From a virus (lineage: Duplodnaviria > Heunggongvirae > Uroviricota > Caudoviricetes), in IMG/VR virus record IMGVR_UViG_2534681773_000029: 32,438 nt of DNA; one strand, written 5' to 3'. Shown here in pieces: positions 3,238-10,503 of the stretch (position 1 is its first letter; each line of letters begins with the position of its first letter). The notes under the pieces are model-generated. The model did not search any database, was not told the origin of the DNA, and was given only the letters and a program-made list of their open reading frames with translations. A program made the translations under genes and the position numbers.

Positions 3238-3509
3238 GTATTCGTATTGAAATTGGCGAACGTTATGTCGTTACCAGTGACAGCTTTCAGTTTATTCTCC
3301 ACGAGAAAAAGAGAGCGGAAAGCGGTAAAAACGCCGGTCAGGAATGGCTGGCGGTGGTTGGTTATTACCCGAAATTAGGCCAGCTCGTTTCCGGCCTGAT
3401 GCATCACGATATTCTGACCGGAAGCGCAAAATCTTTTGCTGATTTAAACACGCAGGTTGAGCAACTCAGCAAGCGTTGTTCAGAGGCTTTTGGCTCATAT
3501 GGCCGTTAA
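3234..3509 (+). CDS. Hypothetical early-operon protein
   Basis: 91-aa ORF with GGAGAA SD; stop overlaps start region of A. Confidence 0.5.
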   Translation: MSIRIEIGERYVVTSDSFQFILHEKKRAESGKNAGQEWLAVVGYYPKLGQLVSGLMHHDILTGSAKSFADLNTQVEQLSKRCSEAFGSYGR

Positions 3510-5775
3510 AGCCTCCGGGCGTTTTGTCCCTCCGTCAGCATTTACCGCAGGCACCGGTAAGGCGTTTACCGGTGCTTATGCATGGAACGCGCCACGCGAG
3601 GCTGTCGGGCGCGAAAGACCTCTTACACGTGACGAGATGCGTCAGGTGCAAGGTGTTTTATCCACGATTAACCGCCTGCCTTACTTTTTGCGCTCGCTGT
3701 TTACTTCACGCTATGACTACATCCGGCGCAATAAAAGCCCGGTGCACGGGTTTTATTTCCTCACATCTACTTTTCAGCGTCGTTTATGGCCGCGCATTGA
3801 GCGTGTGAATCAGCGCCATGAAATGAACACCGACGCGTCGTTGCTGTTTCTGGCAGAGCGTGACCACTATGCGCGCCTGCCGGGAATGAATGACAAGGAG
3901 CTGAAAAAGTTTGCCGCCCGTATCTCATCGCAGCTTTTCATGATGTATGAGGAACTCTGCGATGCATGGGTTGATGCGCATGGTGAAAAAGAATCGCTGT
4001 TTACGGATGAGGCGCAGGCTCACCTCTATGGTCATGTTGCTGGCGCTGCACGTGCTTTCAATATTTCCCCGCTCTACTGGAAAAAATACCGTAAAGGACA
4101 GATGACCACGAGGCAGGCATATTCTGCCATTGCCCGCCTGTTTAACGATGAGTGGTGGACTCATCAGCTTAAAGGCCAGCGTATGCGCTGGCATGAGGCG
4201 TTACTGATAGCTGTCGGGGAGGTCAATAAAGACCGTTCTCCTTATGCCAGTAAACACGCCATTCGTGATGTGCGTGCGCGCCGCCAGGCAAATCTGGAAT
4301 TTCTTAAATCGTGTGACCTTGAAAACAGGGAAACCGGCGAGCGCATCGACCTTATCAGTAAGGTGATGGGCAGTATTTCTAATCCTGAAATTCGCCGGAT
4401 GGAGCTGATGAACACCATTGCCGGTATTGAGCGTTACGCCGCCGCAGAGGGTGATGTGGGGATGTTTATCACGCTGACCGCGCCGTCAAAGTATCACCCG
4501 ACACGTCAGGTCGGAAAAGGCGAAAGTAAAACCGTTCAGCTTAATCACGGCTGGAACGATGAGGCATTTAATCCAAAGGATGCGCAGCGTTATCTCTGCC
4601 GTATCTGGAGCCTGATGCGCACGGCATTCAAGGATAATGATTTACAGGTCTACGGTTTGCGAGTCGTCGAGCCACACCACGACGGAACGCCGCACTGGCA
4701 TATGATGCTTTTTTGTCATCCACGCCAGCGTAACCAGATTATCGAAATCATGCGTCGCTATGCGCTCAAAGAGGATGGCGACGAAAGAGGAGCCGCGCGA
4801 AACCGTTTTCAGGCAAAACACCTTAACCGGGGCGGTGCTGCGGGATATATCGCGAAATACATTTCAAAAAACATCGACGGCTATGCACTGGATGGTCAGC
4901 TCGATAACGACACCGGCAGGCCGCTGAAAGACACTGCAGCGGCTGTTACCGCATGGGCGTCAACGTGGCGCATTCCGCAATTTAAAACGGTTGGCCTGCC
5001 GACAATGGGGGCTTACCGTGAACTACGCAAATTGCCTCGCGGCGTCAGCATTGCTGATGAGTTTGACGAGCGCGTCGAGGCTGCACGCGCCGCCGCAGAC
5101 AGTGGTGATTTTGCGCTGTATATCAGCGCGCAGGGCGGGGCAAATGTCCCGCGCGATTGTCAGACTGTCAGGGTCGCCCGTAGTCTGTCGGATGACGTTA
5201 ACGAGTACGAGGAAGAAGTCGAGAGAGTGGTCGGCATTTACGCGCCGCATCTCGGCGCGCGTCATATTCATATCACCAGAACGACGGACTGGCGCATTGT
5301 GCCGAAAGTTCCGGTCGTTGAGCCTTTGACTTTAAAAAGCGGCATCGCCGCGCCTCGGAGTCCTGTCAATAACTGTGGAAAGCTCACCGGTGGTGATACT
5401 TCGTTACCGGCTCCCACACCTTCTGAGCACGCCGCAGCAGTGCTTAATCTGGTTGATGACGATGTTATCGAATGGAATGACCCGGAGGTCGTGAGGGCGC
5501 TCAGGGGCGCATTAAAACACGACCGGAGAACGCCAAACCGTCAGCAAAGAAACGGAAGCCCGTTAAAACCGCATGAAATTGCACCATCGGCCAGACTGAC
5601 CCGGTCGGAACGATTGCAAATTACCCGTATCCGCGTTGATCTCGCTCAGAACGGTATCAGGCCGCAACGATGGGAGCTTGAGGCGCTGGCGCGTGGCGCG
5701 ACCGTAAATTATGACGGGAAACCTTTCACTTATCAGGTCGCTGATGATTGGCCGGGATTTTTGTTACCCATTTGA
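3499..5775 (+). CDS. A: Replication initiation endonuclease gpA (HUH rolling-circle initiator)
   Basis: 758-aa ORF from ATG 3499 (MAVKASGRFVPP); HUH motif PHWHMMLF and catalytic-Tyr motif YIAKYISKN visible; matches P2 A. The track start at 3457 overlaps the upstream gene. Confidence 0.9.
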   Translation: MAVKASGRFVPPSAFTAGTGKAFTGAYAWNAPREAVGRERPLTRDEMRQVQGVLSTINRLPYFLRSLFTSRYDYIRRNKSPVHGFYFLTSTFQRRLWPRIERVNQRHEMNTDASLLFLAERDHYARLPGMNDKELKKFAARISSQLFMMYEELCDAWVDAHGEKESLFTDEAQAHLYGHVAGAARAFNISPLYWKKYRKGQMTTRQAYSAIARLFNDEWWTHQLKGQRMRWHEALLIAVGEVNKDRSPYASKHAIRDVRARRQANLEFLKSCDLENRETGERIDLISKVMGSISNPEIRRMELMNTIAGIERYAAAEGDVGMFITLTAPSKYHPTRQVGKGESKTVQLNHGWNDEAFNPKDAQRYLCRIWSLMRTAFKDNDLQVYGLRVVEPHHDGTPHWHMMLFCHPRQRNQIIEIMRRYALKEDGDERGAARNRFQAKHLNRGGAAGYIAKYISKNIDGYALDGQLDNDTGRPLKDTAAAVTAWASTWRIPQFKTVGLPTMGAYRELRKLPRGVSIADEFDERVEAARAAADSGDFALYISAQGGANVPRDCQTVRVARSLSDDVNEYEEEVERVVGIYAPHLGARHIHITRTTDWRIVPKVPVVEPLTLKSGIAAPRSPVNNCGKLTGGDTSLPAPTPSEHAAAVLNLVDDDVIEWNDPEVVRALRGALKHDRRTPNRQQRNGSPLKPHEIAPSARLTRSERLQITRIRVDLAQNGIRPQRWELEALARGATVNYDGKPFTYQVADDWPGFLLPI

Positions 5776-5992
5776 GTAAAAATACAGCGTGATTTTATAT
5801 GTCTTTGAATGGATTATGCGAAGCACCTCTAAGGTAGATGAGGAGCAATAGCGTGTTGAATCAGAAGGCTAAATTGTATTGAATCGTTAGCATGTAATTG
5901 AAGGCAGCTATTTGATTCGAGTCATAAAAGAGCATCTATTTCGGTTAATAAAACCATTGCGAGTGACTTTATGTCGAAGCATAATTCATCTC

Positions 5993-6006
5993 GAGCGAAG
6001 TCTTGC
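5993..6006. repeat. 14-bp direct repeat GAGCGAAGTCTTGC, copy 1
   Basis: Exact match to 6257-6270; copy 1 sits just after a TTGCGA-N17-CATAAT promoter-like element (5957-5985). Confidence 0.7.
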
Positions 6007-6034
6007 TAGTCTTTCATCGGATTGATGACGGGCG

Positions 6035-6066
6035 CAAAAAAACCACCCTGGCAGGTGGTTTTTTTG
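6035..6066. terminator. Bidirectional intrinsic terminator (A-run, ACCACC-loop-GGTGGT hairpin, T7 run)
   Basis: aaaaaaaccaccctggcaggtggttttttt read directly; works on both strands. Confidence 0.6.
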
Positions 6067-6077
6067 TTTGAAGCATA

Positions 6078-6191
6078 CTAAAGAAAAATACTTACATGGA
6101 TATTACTGACGTTTACTGACAAACCACTCGGACTACCATATGGATAGCCAAAGAGGGCCAGAACGAGAATGCAGTAATAGCACTTCTTCAT
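6078..6191 (-). CDS. Candidate 37-aa hydrophobic peptide (MKKCYYCILVLALFGYPYGSPSGLSVNVSNIHVSIFL); possible type I toxin-like or small membrane protein
   Basis: ATG at 6191 preceded by AGGAGG; ends 12 nt before the terminator at 6035-6066; below the ORF-track length cutoff so hand-translated. Not a recognised family. Confidence 0.35.
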   Translation of the reverse strand: MKKCYYCILVLALFGYPYGSPSGLSVNVSNIHVSIFL

Positions 6192-6256
6192 ATCGCCTCC
6201 TGTAAGCAGAGGGCAATTTCCGCCGATATATGCGCTTCTAAGGCGGAGTGACTATT

Positions 6257-6270
6257 GAGCGAAGTCTTGC
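6257..6270. repeat. 14-bp direct repeat GAGCGAAGTCTTGC, copy 2 (in predicted 5' UTR of the small-peptide mRNA)
   Basis: Exact copy of 5993-6006; lies about 66 nt upstream of the peptide start on the minus strand. Confidence 0.7.
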
Positions 6271-6847
6271 CCTGAAATAATGCTCTGTTTAAACGCAAAG
6301 TGATCTGGCATATCACCGAACAGAGGACCTGAACAACACAACATATAGTATGTCGTTGTTTCTGGTTGCATTTTATGTTGTGTAATACTGGTTTTGCATC
6401 AAGGATGTTTGAGCTTTTTTTGATATAGCTCAAAGTAAAAAGCAGAGACTACGGATGATAAGGTCTTGAAAGCAATGTAAATTTTTTAAAGTTGTGAGTG
6501 GCTAGAAATGCACAGTTTCAATATGGCGGATTTAAACAAGTAATTAAAAATAGCGACATAAATTCCAATAAAATCATTAGGTTGCGTTTTCTGTGGAAAC
6601 TTCGGTGACTCTGAAATTTTCTTTTAGTGTCGCTGAGGTTTAACAACTCGCTGCGCAAGTAGTTAGTGTTTTTTTAACTCAATATTCTGATTTATAAGGT
6701 TTTTTATAAATCGTGGGCTGGTTGCGCGTATTCATCTCGTGTTATCAGCAAAGATAAGCTCTATATGCAGAACTGAATGCATATATGATGTCGAAAATGT
6801 TATGGGAAAACGTGGATTAGTGTTATAGTAATGGCTGAAAAACAGCC

Positions 6848-6876
6848 TTGACATAAAATAACAACTGTGATATGGC
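6848..6876 (+). promoter_or_regulatory. Possible promoter for the peptidase gene (TTGACA -35 at 6848-6853; weak -10 TATGGC after 17-nt spacer)
   Basis: Perfect -35 hexamer but poor -10; low confidence. Confidence 0.25.
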
Positions 6877-6912
6877 TGTGCATACTTAACTTTTTTAACG
6901 TAGGAGGCAACC

Positions 6913-7398
6913 ATGAGCTATGCAGCTAAAAAACTGCTTGACCGCTATTGGGATCGCCGACTACCTGTCGATCCGTTTAAGCTTGCTAAAGCGTGGGGTG
7001 CTCGTGTTGAAGCACTTGAGGAATCGGCTTATAACAACGATGGGTTAAGCGGTCTGGCTGTCATCAAAAAGGGTGTCCATAGGATTTATTTTGATTCTAG
7101 TGAACATTCTAATCGTCAACGTTTTACTGTTGCACACGAGTTAGGTCATCATGTGCTGGGGCATACCCAGGACGGAGAGTACCATCGGGATAATGTCGGG
7201 AATTATTCAACAGGTGCTCGTGATTATCGTGAGGTTGAAGCAAACAAGTTTGCTGCTGAGTTGTTAATGCCTGAGTCTGCTATACGTCAATTGGTATCCA
7301 GAGAAGGTATTGATAGCACTTTGAGATTAGCAAGCATCTTTAATGTATCAGAAGCCGCTATGCATTGGCGCTTAAAGAGCTTAGGAATGGCTTATTAA
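6913..7398 (+). CDS. ImmA/IrrE-family (M78-like) Zn metallopeptidase
   Basis: 161-aa ORF with AGGAGG SD; HEXXH motif (AHELGHHVLGH) and downstream EVEANKFAAELLMPE, the signature of ImmA/IrrE peptidases. No HTH partner gene adjacent. Confidence 0.8.
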   Translation: MSYAAKKLLDRYWDRRLPVDPFKLAKAWGARVEALEESAYNNDGLSGLAVIKKGVHRIYFDSSEHSNRQRFTVAHELGHHVLGHTQDGEYHRDNVGNYSTGARDYREVEANKFAAELLMPESAIRQLVSREGIDSTLRLASIFNVSEAAMHWRLKSLGMAY

Positions 7399-7423
7399 TT
7401 AGCCTTTAACTTTTAACCTGTTT

Positions 7424-7464
7424 AAAATCACCTTTACGTTTGTACATGTAAGGGTGATTTTTTT
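7424..7464 (+). terminator. Intrinsic terminator or attenuator downstream of peptidase gene
   Basis: Hairpin ATCACCTTTA / TAAGGGTGAT followed by T7, ending immediately before the ATG at 7465. Confidence 0.5.
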
Positions 7465-8064
7465 ATGGCTGATATTGATTTATCTGGACAGTCCCCAGAG
7501 CAAGGAACCACTCCTAAGGGCGATTTAGATCCTGATATCCTTATAAGGCGAGATAGACGGGATGGTATAGAGCGTAGAAGTATGCGATTAGTGCTCTCTG
7601 CCGTTGTGCTTTGTTTTGCTTGTACATTTCTATGGCAGGGGCTTAACTTTGCTTTGGCTGTTGGAAATGGCTTGCTGGAAGCGAAAAGCAGTATTGCCGC
7701 AGCGATAACACAAAAAGTAGATACACAAACTTGTGTTTCAGCAGAAAAATGTTCTGCTTTATCTTCGGATCCGAAGATGGCTGATGAGAGGATAACACCA
7801 TCTTCAGACACTAATAAAGTTAGAAAATCTATTTCTGGTTTATCCACCGATTGGTTATCGGCCAGTTCTCTAATAGCTATTGTTGCATTCATCCTTGGTG
7901 TGGGTTTAACTTTGCTTTTGACTCTTCTTAAATCAGCATTTCAACACCCGACAGATAAAGACTTTAGAACAAAGTCGACATCTAATACTATTGAGTTGGC
8001 CACGCCAATCAGTGAATTAATAATTGGTGTTCTGAATATAATTAAAGACAAACTATCTAAGTAA
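7465..8064 (+). CDS. Predicted membrane protein with two hydrophobic helices, unknown function
   Basis: 199-aa ORF; hydrophobic stretches RLVLSAVVLCFACTFLWQGLNFALAV and SSLIAIVAFILGVGLTLLLTLL; improbably long open frame for AT-rich DNA. Start uncertain: no good SD at 7465, internal Met at 7582. A minus-strand ORF 7434..7892 overlaps it. Confidence 0.4.
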   Translation: MADIDLSGQSPEQGTTPKGDLDPDILIRRDRRDGIERRSMRLVLSAVVLCFACTFLWQGLNFALAVGNGLLEAKSSIAAAITQKVDTQTCVSAEKCSALSSDPKMADERITPSSDTNKVRKSISGLSTDWLSASSLIAIVAFILGVGLTLLLTLLKSAFQHPTDKDFRTKSTSNTIELATPISELIIGVLNIIKDKLSK

Positions 8065-8106
8065 AGCATTAGTTGTGATTTTTTATTGGTTTTAGTGATA
8101 ATACAT

Positions 8107-8140
8107 CTCCAGTACTTATTGTTACTGGAGAGTATTTTTA
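8107..8140. terminator. Hairpin (CTCCAGTA / TACTGGAG) with T-rich tail between convergent genes
   Basis: Perfect 8-bp inverted repeat with 8-nt loop, followed by AGTATTTTTA. Confidence 0.4.
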
Positions 8141-8247
8141 GTCGTTTTATATTTTTAATGTTAGTGAATGATATTCACGAGAGTTCACGTTCGATGTGAT
8201 GTAATCGGGGGCGTTAACACCAAGAATCGCAACGAGTAATCGGCAAA

Positions 8248-9087
8248 TTAAAGCCTGCATTTGTTGTAATATGTCATCTCCATATTGATAATTGTTAATA
8301 GTGGTAAAGCCAAGTGGTTGACCATGAAACATAGCTTCATGAAAGTTTTCATTGCGGATGTTTGTAATGTTTTTTTGCCTGTAACCCATGATGGTCGTGG
8401 TATTCCATAAGTTTTGCAGATCCACTTCAAGCGCCTGGAGTGATTTAGAGTCTTTTCTGTACACTTGTTCTTTTCTGCCCATGTTAAAGCAAAGCAACTA
8501 TCCAGTGCCATATAAAGATACTGGAATTTTTCGAAGCTAAGGTATTGTGGGTTTTGGGATAAAAATAGTGCATGCACTATTGCTGCTATATTTATTGGTG
8601 CGTGTTTGGTTTTTGTCTCGCTAGACATGTATTTGAGTGCTAATTCTATAACCTCTTTTTCAGAGCACTTGACCAGAATAAAGTCAGTTAATTTGCTGGG
8701 TTTTATTGGGGTTGCGTCTAAAAAACCGGCATCAGTAGTTGTTAATCTTATCCCTTTGAAAAAAGACAGACACCACACAGCAAAATTGAGAGTTTCTAGT
8801 GAAGATGTATTTTTTAATTTTAGTGAGTGTGTTTTGGGTAAGCCAAATACTCGTTGGCTAAAAGGCATTGTGGATATGCCTCCATTGAGGTTATATACTT
8901 CTTGGTTTCCTGGGTATATCCAACCGTTAATAACATTTCTGTGATTGTTTATAAGATTTGTTTTTTCCGCTAGACCGGGTAAAGTAAGTAAAGAAAAATC
9001 ATCAGTTTCAACGTTAACTTCTACTGGATAGTATCCAAACTCAGCTTCAATATCATTGGATTGCTGTTCGTCAACTTTACCTTGCAT
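8248..9087 (-). CDS. Hypothetical protein of unknown family in cargo island; possibly frameshifted (see overlapping ORF 8147..8497)
   Basis: 279-aa minus-strand ORF; a second open frame continues to 8147. One extra A in the A7 run (plus-strand T7 at 8370-8376) would fuse them into about 313 aa. No recognisable catalytic motif. Confidence 0.45.
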   Translation of the reverse strand: MQGKVDEQQSNDIEAEFGYYPVEVNVETDDFSLLTLPGLAEKTNLINNHRNVINGWIYPGNQEVYNLNGGISTMPFSQRVFGLPKTHSLKLKNTSSLETLNFAVWCLSFFKGIRLTTTDAGFLDATPIKPSKLTDFILVKCSEKEVIELALKYMSSETKTKHAPINIAAIVHALFLSQNPQYLSFEKFQYLYMALDSCFALTWAEKNKCTEKTLNHSRRLKWICKTYGIPRPSWVTGKKTLQTSAMKTFMKLCFMVNHLALPLLTIINMEMTYYNKCRL

Positions 9088-9324
9088 ACATTGCTCCGGT
9101 CAAAAATAGGCTCGATAATTCTCGTAAGCCTATCATGTTCGCAAAGTATCCATACCTGTGGATTTTGTAAATTTAAGTTGATTTGTCATTAAATAAGCCG
9201 TTGCATGCAACAAGTGAATGTTTTTGCATGCGTCGGGGATGTCCGTTCAGGCTGCGTGCGGTCAGGACTGGTGCGGATCCATAGTATCTATGCAACTGCA
9301 TTAAAACCGCCCCATGAAGCGGGC

Positions 9325-9343
9325 GGGCGAGGCGGGGAAAGCA
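9325..9343. other. cos: cos site (19-nt cohesive-end sequence GGCGAGGCGGGGAAAGCAC)
   Basis: Exact match to the P2/P4 cohesive-end sequence as I recall it; lies in the expected place upstream of Q. Confidence 0.7.
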
Positions 9344-9486
9344 CTGCGCGCTGGCGGTGGTGCTGATTTTATTTTTTCAGCGTCTGAGCGCGTCGTGATG
9401 GCGTTTAGATTGTTCGCCGGGGCGTTGGTGTGTCTGCGGGCTGTTTTGTGCGGTGGTGAGCGTGTGAGGGCGTGATGGCGGGTTGT

Positions 9487-9508
9487 AAAAAAGCCGCCCG
9501 CAGGCGGC
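9487..9508 (-). terminator. Intrinsic terminator after Q (minus strand)
   Basis: GCCGCC-CGCA-GGCGGC hairpin with T6 on the minus strand, 6 nt past the Q stop. Confidence 0.5.
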
Positions 9509-9513
9509 GATGT

Positions 9514-10503
9514 TCAGCCGTTGTCAGTGTCCAGTGAGTAGTTTTTAAAGCGGATGACCTCCTGACCGAGCCAGCCGTTTATTTCCCGAATCCTGTCCTG
9601 TAACGGGATTAGCTCATTGCGGACAAAGACCTTTGCCACTTTCTCAATATCGCCCAGTGACCCGACGTTCTCCGGCTTGCCACCCATCAACTGAAAGGGG
9701 ATGCGGTGTGCGTCCAGCAGGTCAGCGGCGCTGGCTTTTTTGATATTAAAAAAATCGTCCTTCGTCGCCACTTCACTGAGCGGGATAATTTTAATGCCGT
9801 CGGCTTTCCCCTGCGGGGCATAGAGAAACAGGTTTTTAAAGTTGTTGCGGCCTTTCGACTTCACCATGTTTTCGCGAAGCATTTCGATATCGTTGCGATC
9901 CTGCACGGCATCGGTAACGTACATGATGTATCCGGCATGTGCGCCGTTTTCGTAATACTTGCGGCGGAACAGCGTGGCCGACTCATTCAGCCAGGCAGAG
10001 TTAAGGGCGCTGAGATATTCCGGCAGGCCATACAGCTCCTGATTAATATCCGGCTCCAGCAGGTGAAACACGGAGCCGGGCGTGAAAGGTGTCGGCTCGT
10101 TGAAGGACGGCACCCACCAGTAAACATCCTCCTCCACGCCACGACGGGTATATTTGGCCGGTGAGGTTTCCAGTCTGATGACCTTACCGGTGGTGCTGTA
10201 ACGCTTTTCCAGAAACGCATTACCGAACACCAGAAAATCCAGCACAAAGCGGCTGAAATCCTGCTGGGAAAGCCACGGGTGCGGGATAAACGTTGAGGCC
10301 AGAATATTACGTTTGACGTAAATCGGTGAGCTGTGATGCACGGCAGCACGCAGGCTTTTTGCCAGACCGGTAAAGCTGACCGGTGGCTCATACCATCTGC
10401 CGTTACTGATGCATTCGACGTAATCCAGAATGTCACGGCGGTCGAGTACCGGCACCGGCTCGCCAAAGGTGAATGCCTCCATTTTCGGGGCGCTGGCGGT
10501 CAT
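9514..10503 (-). CDS. Q: Portal protein gpQ
   Basis: 329-aa ORF matching P2 Q. A 15-codon ORF (10500..10547) starts at an ATG overlapping the P stop and would join in frame with one extra homopolymer base, giving 344 aa. Confidence 0.85.
   Translation of the reverse strand: MTASAPKMEAFTFGEPVPVLDRRDILDYVECISNGRWYEPPVSFTGLAKSLRAAVHHSSPIYVKRNILASTFIPHPWLSQQDFSRFVLDFLVFGNAFLEKRYSTTGKVIRLETSPAKYTRRGVEEDVYWWVPSFNEPTPFTPGSVFHLLEPDINQELYGLPEYLSALNSAWLNESATLFRRKYYENGAHAGYIMYVTDAVQDRNDIEMLRENMVKSKGRNNFKNLFLYAPQGKADGIKIIPLSEVATKDDFFNIKKASAADLLDAHRIPFQLMGGKPENVGSLGDIEKVAKVFVRNELIPLQDRIREINGWLGQEVIRFKNYSLDTDNG

Follow-up and report, generated by a model that had tools for sequence, protein, structure and literature searches.

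A standalone M78 metallopeptidase and a two-helix membrane protein form a mobile gene pair in the cargo hotspot of a P2-like prophage

Introduction

What does a peptidase of the ImmA/IrrE type do when the repressor that it would be expected to cut is not encoded beside it? The characterised ImmA, IrrE and CapP peptidases are switches that cut helix-turn-helix (HTH) repressors. The question is raised here by IMG/VR virus record IMGVR_UViG_2534681773_000029, a P2-like (Peduovirus) prophage of which we analysed the whole stretch of 32,438 nucleotides (hereafter, the window). In it, a gene for a standalone M78 (ImmA/IrrE/CapP-type) zinc metallopeptidase is followed by a gene for a membrane protein with two transmembrane (TM) segments. 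The initial annotation of this DNA, made from the letters and their open reading frames (ORFs), had described a peptidase with its full signature and no HTH partner, a hairpin with a run of seven T ending at the next ATG, and a 199-codon ORF with two hydrophobic helices, and had inferred from them the layout of an abortive-infection or toxin-like module. The sequence elements, and the coupling of the two genes, stood up to the analysis reported here. The pair is a distinct, horizontally mobile two-gene module. We favour, tentatively and with somewhat less than even confidence, the view that it is a protease-gated membrane effector in mobile-element conflict, of a defence/abortive or toxin-antitoxin (TA)-like kind, in which the tail of the membrane protein is the substrate of the peptidase.

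Results

The two genes are inherited together

Loci homologous to the pair were gathered from exact-protein look-ups and from IMG/VR (16 contigs). The carriers of membrane-protein homologues include the P2-like hotspot of Leclercia, the end of a different prophage in Pectobacterium, a chromosomal island in Serratia, an island with recombinases in Vibrio harveyi, a DUF927-primase element in Acinetobacter and an Enterobacter plasmid. In every one of the analysed loci that encode a homologue of the membrane protein (18/18), an ORF of 161-164 amino acids (aa) with an HEXXH motif lies directly upstream on the same strand, an arrangement far beyond chance given its recurrence in 18 independent loci. 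The peptidases themselves are numerous, with at least 283 clusters at 90% identity (E < 1e-10) from Gammaproteobacteria, Betaproteobacteria and a Desulfovibrio-like contig. We sampled five distant ones (42-51% identity), from a Mu-like prophage of Aeromonas, a prophage of P. aeruginosa, Klebsiella grimontii, a coral-metagenome contig and Cupriavidus, and all five are followed by a two-TM protein of like design and 130-236 aa; sequence search did not link these five partners to the membrane-protein family of the window.

When the flanks of the loci (+/-3 kb) were compared all-vs-all by blastp, the peptidase and the membrane gene were the only genes common to unrelated contexts. No HTH gene is conserved near the pair in any context in this comparison, and the small neighbour genes found elsewhere have no Pfam match. 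The pairwise identities of the two proteins correlate strongly (r = 0.94, 120 pairs), with the membrane protein evolving faster (63-68% identity where the peptidase has 84-90%). Strict synteny, co-divergence and the fact that these are the only shared genes argue that the pair is not an ImmR/ImmA unit minus its repressor. The initial annotation had allowed for a peptidase that elsewhere always pairs with a regulator lost here; its homologues pair instead with the membrane protein, in every locus examined.

A compact peptidase with a conserved active site

The peptidase (Table 1) carries FTVAHELGHHVLGH and EVEANKFAAELLMPE and matches Pfam Peptidase_M78 (PF06114) with 75.6 bits (cut-off 22, E = 3.8e-21); its best PADLOC model is capP (1.1e-30), aligned over profile positions 8-153 of 242 only. 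HELGH occupies residues 75-79, and since H75, E76, H79 and E107 are invariant among 51 homologues, the catalytic site is intact and the enzyme is expected to be active. The AlphaFold2 (AF2) model (predicted local distance difference test score, pLDDT, 85.5) has a peptidase domain followed by a C-terminal three-helix HTH-like subdomain, where the model ends. By Foldseek it resembles CapP (7t5t, E = 3.6e-6) and IrrE/PprI (8sln and 3dti, E about 2e-5) over both of these parts, and matches were also found at the sequence level.

Family, fold and the HEXXH motif with its Glu ligand are thus shared with ImmA/ImmR (ICEBs1 and temperate phages), CapP/CapH (of the cyclic-oligonucleotide-based anti-phage signalling system, CBASS) and IrrE(PprI)/DdrO (Deinococcus), and ImmA is a similarly small protein. 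The gene arrangement differs: ImmR/ImmA, CapH/CapP and DdrO/IrrE have an adjacent HTH repressor as substrate, whereas our pair has none in 18 loci and a two-TM neighbour instead, and its partner gene lies downstream and is attenuated, unlike in those systems. The sensing parts differ as well. CapP and IrrE sense single-stranded DNA (ssDNA) through a C-terminal GAF domain, which forms a groove for it, and CapP has in addition a cysteine-switch loop (PMC13228613). The 161-aa peptidase has no GAF domain, as judged from the capP profile coverage and the AF2 model, and no Cys in the loop at residues 85-104; with both missing, an ssDNA groove of the CapP/IrrE type is incomplete.

No XRE/HTH gene lies upstream of the peptidase in the window. 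The 1137 bp from the gpA stop (5775) to 6913 contain no RefSeq-annotated gene, and the four small ORFs tested in this gap (81, 37, 60 and 46 aa) gave no Pfam match. On these grounds, and because the flank comparison found nothing further in common, we rejected a hidden HTH or third gene. The upstream DNA had been described initially as about 470 bp of non-coding, AT-rich sequence; the low GC is right, but 470 bp is the distance to the 81-codon ORF, which is shadow-like, and the unannotated stretch is longer.

These observations bear on an explanation that keeps the peptidase within the known biology of its family, in which its target in trans would be an HTH repressor from another locus, so that it served as an anti-repressor or induction switch, and the membrane protein would be a mere moron neighbour; in a variant, the pair would be a decayed ImmR/ImmA. 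The M78 relatives characterised to date all cut HTH repressors, and the HTH-like subdomain, which in IrrE and CapP borders the ssDNA groove, is retained in the peptidase. However, the strict pairing and co-divergence with the membrane protein, in at least 18 loci from several classes of Proteobacteria, the lack of a conserved HTH gene nearby in any context and the missing GAF domain all speak against it, and it is unlikely that hosts and elements so diverse would share one trans target. We consider this explanation very unlikely.

The membrane protein and its tail motif

The membrane protein has hydrophobic segments at about residues 43-65 (TM1) and 128-155 (TM2), the two helices of the initial annotation. 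It begins with a disordered, acidic, Pro-rich tail and a basic patch (RRDRRDGIERRSMR), followed by TM1, a variable loop of 62 residues with two Cys, and TM2 (AFILGVGLTLLLTLLK), which hardly varies at all. A short linker then leads to an amphipathic helix at the C-terminus (ELATPxSELI…K.KxSK). In the AF2 model (pLDDT 66) it is a helical hairpin, with helices at residues 23-88, 116-159 and 182-198. The positive-inside pattern, with the basic patch before TM1, and the two Cys of the loop suggest an N-in/C-in topology that would leave both tails in the cytoplasm.

The N-terminal tail contains a DLSG motif at residues 5-8. In the strict form of the motif a hydrophobic residue precedes D-L-S-G; a looser form is D[LFYM][SAGT][GAEDQNSH], and xxP often comes next. 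The loose form is found in 54 of the 86 full-length family members, versus 6.5 +/- 2.3 in shuffled tails, and variants of it are present in the distant partners from Aeromonas, Pseudomonas, Cupriavidus and the coral contig. The conservation of the N-terminal Met and of this motif supports ATG 7465 as the real start; RefSeq agrees, whereas the P2DC1 annotation and the table of Rousset et al. (2022) use an internal Met.

Searches of Pfam, PADLOC and PDB (E <= 0.001) gave no match to the membrane protein, and its sole profile match is phrog_8096 (function unknown). The family is small: 53 clusters were recovered in a first search and 56 representatives among 1.84 billion in a profile search. A scan of genome contigs with the alignment of the membrane protein produced 80 pattern matches, none of which was confirmed.

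The layout predicts an abundant peptidase and a scarce partner

Upstream of the peptidase ATG, only ~120 nt are common to unrelated contexts (blastn, alignment). This leader contains a -35 box TTGACA (6848-6853), a 17-nt spacer, a TG-extended -10-like TATGGC (6871-6876) and an invariant Shine-Dalgarno (SD) sequence AGGAGG (6902-6907), and the string AACGTAGGAGGCAACCATG is kept even in the Serratia and plasmid copies. TTGACA/TATGGC is, in our own reading of the sequence, the putative promoter of the peptidase; a promoter scan did not list this site, whose -10 hexamer ends in C.

The 66-nt gap between the peptidase stop and ATG 7465 is largely filled by a hairpin with a 16-bp stem and a 6-nt loop, and its T run abuts the ATG. 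The fold of 7396-7480 has a free energy of -25.1 kcal/mol (z = -5.5; 0 of 200 shuffles as stable), and an SD-like AAGGGTGA (7450-7457) lies within the 3' arm. The same succession of hairpin, T run and ATG is found in 14/16 distinct loci (gap 66-74 nt, z from -3.1 to -7.7, 4-8 T), built from stems that fall into at least four classes unrelated in sequence: ATCACC…GGTGAT, whose interior shows compensatory changes, GCCCTCA/TGAGGGC, AGCCACC/GGTGGCT and variants. A purine-rich SD-like stretch occupies the 3' arm of every class. Since stems of unrelated sequence keep the same layout, it is the structure and its position that are under selection. Rfam returned only sub-threshold matches on the region. 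As the scan gives no sigma-70-like site inside the peptidase gene, the membrane gene would depend on read-through of the terminator, and the layout as a whole should yield much peptidase and very little membrane protein.

Such a dosage is classic for an antitoxin over its toxin, with the upstream gene predicted to be strongly expressed and the downstream one attenuated. The module could then be an addiction or TA-like stabilisation system: the membrane protein would be a toxin, the abundant peptidase would neutralise it by degradation or binding, and the payoff would be the retention of the prophage, plasmid or island. Copies of the module do reside on prophages, islands and a plasmid, PD-lambda-2 is an example of a TA-like system with an M78-domain protein, and a variant of the pair cloned previously (pFR104, see Discussion) lies outside the systems validated in an eight-phage defence test. 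Yet the peptidase is not obviously labile, toxicity in PD-lambda-2 comes from the M78 fusion protein and not from its partner, and lineages with a gap of 5-13 nt and no hairpin would have no dosage bias. On balance this alternative seems to us rather unlikely.

At the 5' foot of the hairpin there is also an A/T-rich, -10-like hexamer, TAAAAT (7423-7428), replaced in homologues by TAGAAT or TATAAA. Transcription from a point 6-8 nt past it would give an RNA without most of the 5' arm, so that termination would not occur and the SD of the membrane gene would be exposed. The hexamer has no good -35 box and may be merely the A-tract of the terminator.

The prophage setting and the neighbouring sequence

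The replication endonuclease gpA is encoded by the ORF at 3457..5775 (Pfam Phage_GPA, 2.8e-124) and the portal gene lies on the minus strand at 9514..10503; the late genes typical of P2 are found in the remainder of the window. The pair sits between gpA and the cos/portal gene Q, in the known gpA-gpQ 'old/tin' hotspot, a reservoir of anti-phage and other cargo genes that include many validated defence systems (Rousset et al., 2022; PMC9122126); the initial annotation had not recognised this site. The insert is variable and of low GC (33-44%, vs 52-60% in the flanks), and other P2 genomes carry different cargo at the site. Complete E. coli genomes with the entire 3.7-kb insert at >=99% identity number 46, ST131 strains among them, and Salmonella phage MET_P1_103_31 has it too; the module as such is scarce in E. 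coli (50/5426 complete genomes), though ST131 strains do carry it. The accession of the window peptidase, WP_000119270, appears in Table S5A of Rousset et al. (2022; PMC9122126).

A location of this kind is compatible with a membrane protein serving superinfection exclusion or lysogenic conversion, matured or turned over by a dedicated peptidase and acting at the envelope, for instance by blocking the entry of DNA from related phages. The P2 hotspot, the neighbourhood of an S24 (cI-type) repressor in P. aeruginosa and the place between mor and lysis genes in the Mu-like phage are all sites expected to be expressed in lysogens. The inter-TM loop is variable and evolves fast, with the membrane protein at 63-68% identity and the peptidase at 84-90%, as expected for a surface in contact with phages, and a panel of unrelated phages would overlook such an activity. 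Nevertheless, a constitutive exclusion protein has no need of a terminator and a buried SD, some copies lie on a plasmid or in chromosomal surroundings where the 2.5-kb flanks that were read contain no called gene of a phage or mobile element, and searches of PADLOC, phrog, Pfam and PDB revealed no similarity to any known exclusion protein. We therefore regard this role as improbable.

The upstream 1.1 kb does not qualify as part of the module: only the ~120-nt leader is conserved, and the block at 5776-6460 is present in 150 E. coli genomes against the 50 with the module; in LY180 it precedes other cargo (an AAA ATPase and a hypothetical protein). The stretch 5880-6480 is 92-100% identical between two cassette variants whose peptidase and TM genes are only 62-88% identical. 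Within 5776-6480 we observed a bidirectional terminator (6033-6066) and a hydrophobic 37-aa ORF (6078..6191, minus strand, MKKCYYCILVLALFG…) with GGAGG 4 nt before its ATG; the 81-codon ORF (6188..6433, minus strand), with one synonymous and five non-synonymous codon differences, is not protein-like. This block may be a small toxin or small-RNA unit, or a recombination scaffold.

Downstream, ORF313 (8147..9087, minus strand) was considered as a third component and rejected. It is missing from non-E. coli copies and frameshifted in the window, and since its partners in P2-EC67 are different genes it counts as cargo in its own right. It belongs to phrog_5937 (function unknown) and is intact, with 313 aa, as WP_001161722 in other strains; in the window, a 1-nt deletion in a T8/A8 homopolymer (T-run 8370-8376) leaves ORFs of 279 and 116 aa; the deletion reflects an error in sequencing or else a genuine frameshift or phase variant. 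An antisense ORF of 152 aa (7434..7892, minus strand) that overlaps the membrane gene, and is seen in several homologues too, was likewise discarded as a gene: its length is expected under synonymous-codon shuffling (P = 0.25; P = 0.09-1.0 at other loci), as for a shadow ORF. The GC-rich stretch at 9300-9513, before the portal gene, contains on the minus strand two strong hairpins resembling terminators (9326-9307 and 9508-9493). It is common to most P2-like phages and to the cloned hotspot inserts of Table S2 in Rousset et al. (2022), and probably contains the cos region. Finally, downstream of the Serratia copy of the module, at a distance of ~1.8 kb (L007/L008, 7463-9246), we noticed another M78 system, one with fused domains: it consists of a 223-aa protein and then a 371-aa HTH_3-Peptidase_M78 protein, an architecture like that of RmrA/PD-lambda-2B.

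Table 1. Position of the module and of its accompanying elements in the window
Feature	Coordinates	Strand	Basis
Promoter and leader region travelling with the module (putative)	6794..6912	+	Shared ~120 nt upstream
M78 (ImmA/IrrE/CapP-type) zinc metallopeptidase, standalone, 161 aa	6913..7398	+	Pfam PF06114, PADLOC capP, AF2 model
Intrinsic-terminator-like hairpin and T7 run abutting the ATG	7424..7464	+	Arms 7424-7439 and 7446-7461; loop 7440-7445; T7 7458-7464
Two-TM membrane protein, 199 aa, phrog_8096	7465..8064	+	Alignments, hydropathy and charge counts, AF2 helices
Bidirectional terminator-like hairpin closing the module and dividing it from the convergent ORF313	8106..8131	.	Terminator scan, 9-bp stem, both strands

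Discussion

The strict association of a small M78 peptidase with a two-TM protein, in hosts and elements of very different kinds, leads us to propose that the co-encoded inner-membrane protein takes the place of the HTH repressor as the partner, and probable substrate, of a cytoplasmic ImmA/IrrE-type peptidase. The peptidase would be made from a strong promoter and SD, while the membrane protein would be kept scarce because the polymerase has to pass a terminator hairpin to transcribe its gene, and the SD of that gene is buried in the same hairpin. The peptidase would then dock on the N-terminal tail of the membrane protein, or cut it, at the DLSG-type motif, and the cut would switch the activity of the membrane protein, which could be permeabilisation of the membrane or exclusion. 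We infer the tail as substrate, the cleavage as switch and the toxicity or defence as output. The proposal is favoured because the canonical substrate is gone and the only co-inherited protein has tails predicted to be cytoplasmic and a linear motif in one of them, and because the expression design would keep that protein scarce and the module rides in cargo hotspots.

Several points weigh against a protease-gated effector. Gene order and dosage, with the peptidase first and abundant, are no less suited to an 'antitoxin' that neutralises its partner than to an activator. The peptidase also has neither the GAF domain nor the cysteine switch that underlie the activation of CapP by ssDNA, and we therefore have no trigger to propose. 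In Pseudomonas, Cupriavidus, Acinetobacter and the coral contig only a short gap separates the two genes, and the hairpin is missing; since several lineages do without it, attenuation is not essential to the module, and the attenuator is an add-on of the enterobacterial, Vibrio, Aeromonas and related (IMG/VR) copies rather than a core requirement. Lastly, the main evidence against a role in defence comes from a published test of a variant of the module. A variant pair from E. coli TA280, named 'Peptidase + TM', was cloned with its native upstream DNA as pFR104 (Rousset et al., 2022; Cell Host Microbe, PMC9122126). It is found only in Table S2B of that paper, among the 'additional tested systems' and not among the validated ones, while three other P2 systems are named as active in the text; the test was made with eight phages.

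pFR104 represents the same module in the same P2 hotspot and a different allele. Its peptidase, the P2DC1/L002 variant, is 88% identical to that of the window, and its membrane protein ~63%. The latter is annotated from an internal Met and as having '1 TM', whereas the conserved N-terminal tail and its motif argue for the longer, two-TM form, and the clone may thus have been mis-annotated. A role of the pair in defence, if it has one, may involve a narrow-spectrum or differently triggered activity.

The idea of a protease that controls a membrane effector has a precedent. Bacterial gasdermins are pore formers activated by a protease, in which cleavage of a tail switches the activity on the membrane. 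A protease gene beside a membrane-acting effector and the logic of tail cleavage are alike in both cases, although in our pair cleavage is hypothetical. The proteins differ: the partner described here is an integral two-TM helical hairpin without the gasdermin fold (no PDB match at E <= 0.001, no Pfam match), and the protease family is another one.

That an M78 domain can act outside repressor switching follows from its presence in PD-lambda-2, a validated, TA-like abortive defence system (Vassallo et al., 2022). PD-lambda-2 and RmrA are HTH-peptidase fusions of 360-400 aa, accompanied by a third gene as well as by a partner resembling HigB, whereas the peptidase of the window is a 161-aa standalone protein with a membrane partner; it has no N-terminal HTH_3 and matches only the C-terminal, peptidase part of the profiles, and flank comparison found no HigB-like neighbour of the pair. 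PADLOC has no system model for the pair, and the peptidase matches in it only the capP, RmrA and PD-Lambda-2_B peptidase-domain models.

The literature, searched by accession and by keywords, yielded no functional study of the pair besides that of Rousset et al. (2022), where the cassette is catalogued as an unvalidated candidate. We found no account in it of the tail motif, of the conserved attenuator or of how strictly peptidase and TM protein go together from taxon to taxon. A broader reading, which we find possible though doubtful, is that the ~160-aa standalone M78 clade and its two-TM partners make up a widespread class of conflict modules, protease-gated membrane switches in which the protease has turned from a DNA-binding repressor to the tail of an effector, recognised by a DLSxGxxP-like linear motif. 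Such a class could be a new type of abortive-infection or TA system, with a trigger outside the eight-phage panel.

The pair offers several handles for experiments: the E76Q substitution, the hairpin, the tail motif DLSG and the start codon as placed here at 7465. What it brings to the biology of the family is a clade of ~160-aa M78 peptidases without a repressor, locked to a membrane protein in hosts and mobile elements of many kinds. If the proposal is true, a compact two-gene module of ~1.3 kb would join the list of phage-hotspot cargo; and if the tail of the partner is indeed the substrate, the repertoire of the M78 family would extend from transcriptional control to the direct control of a membrane effector.

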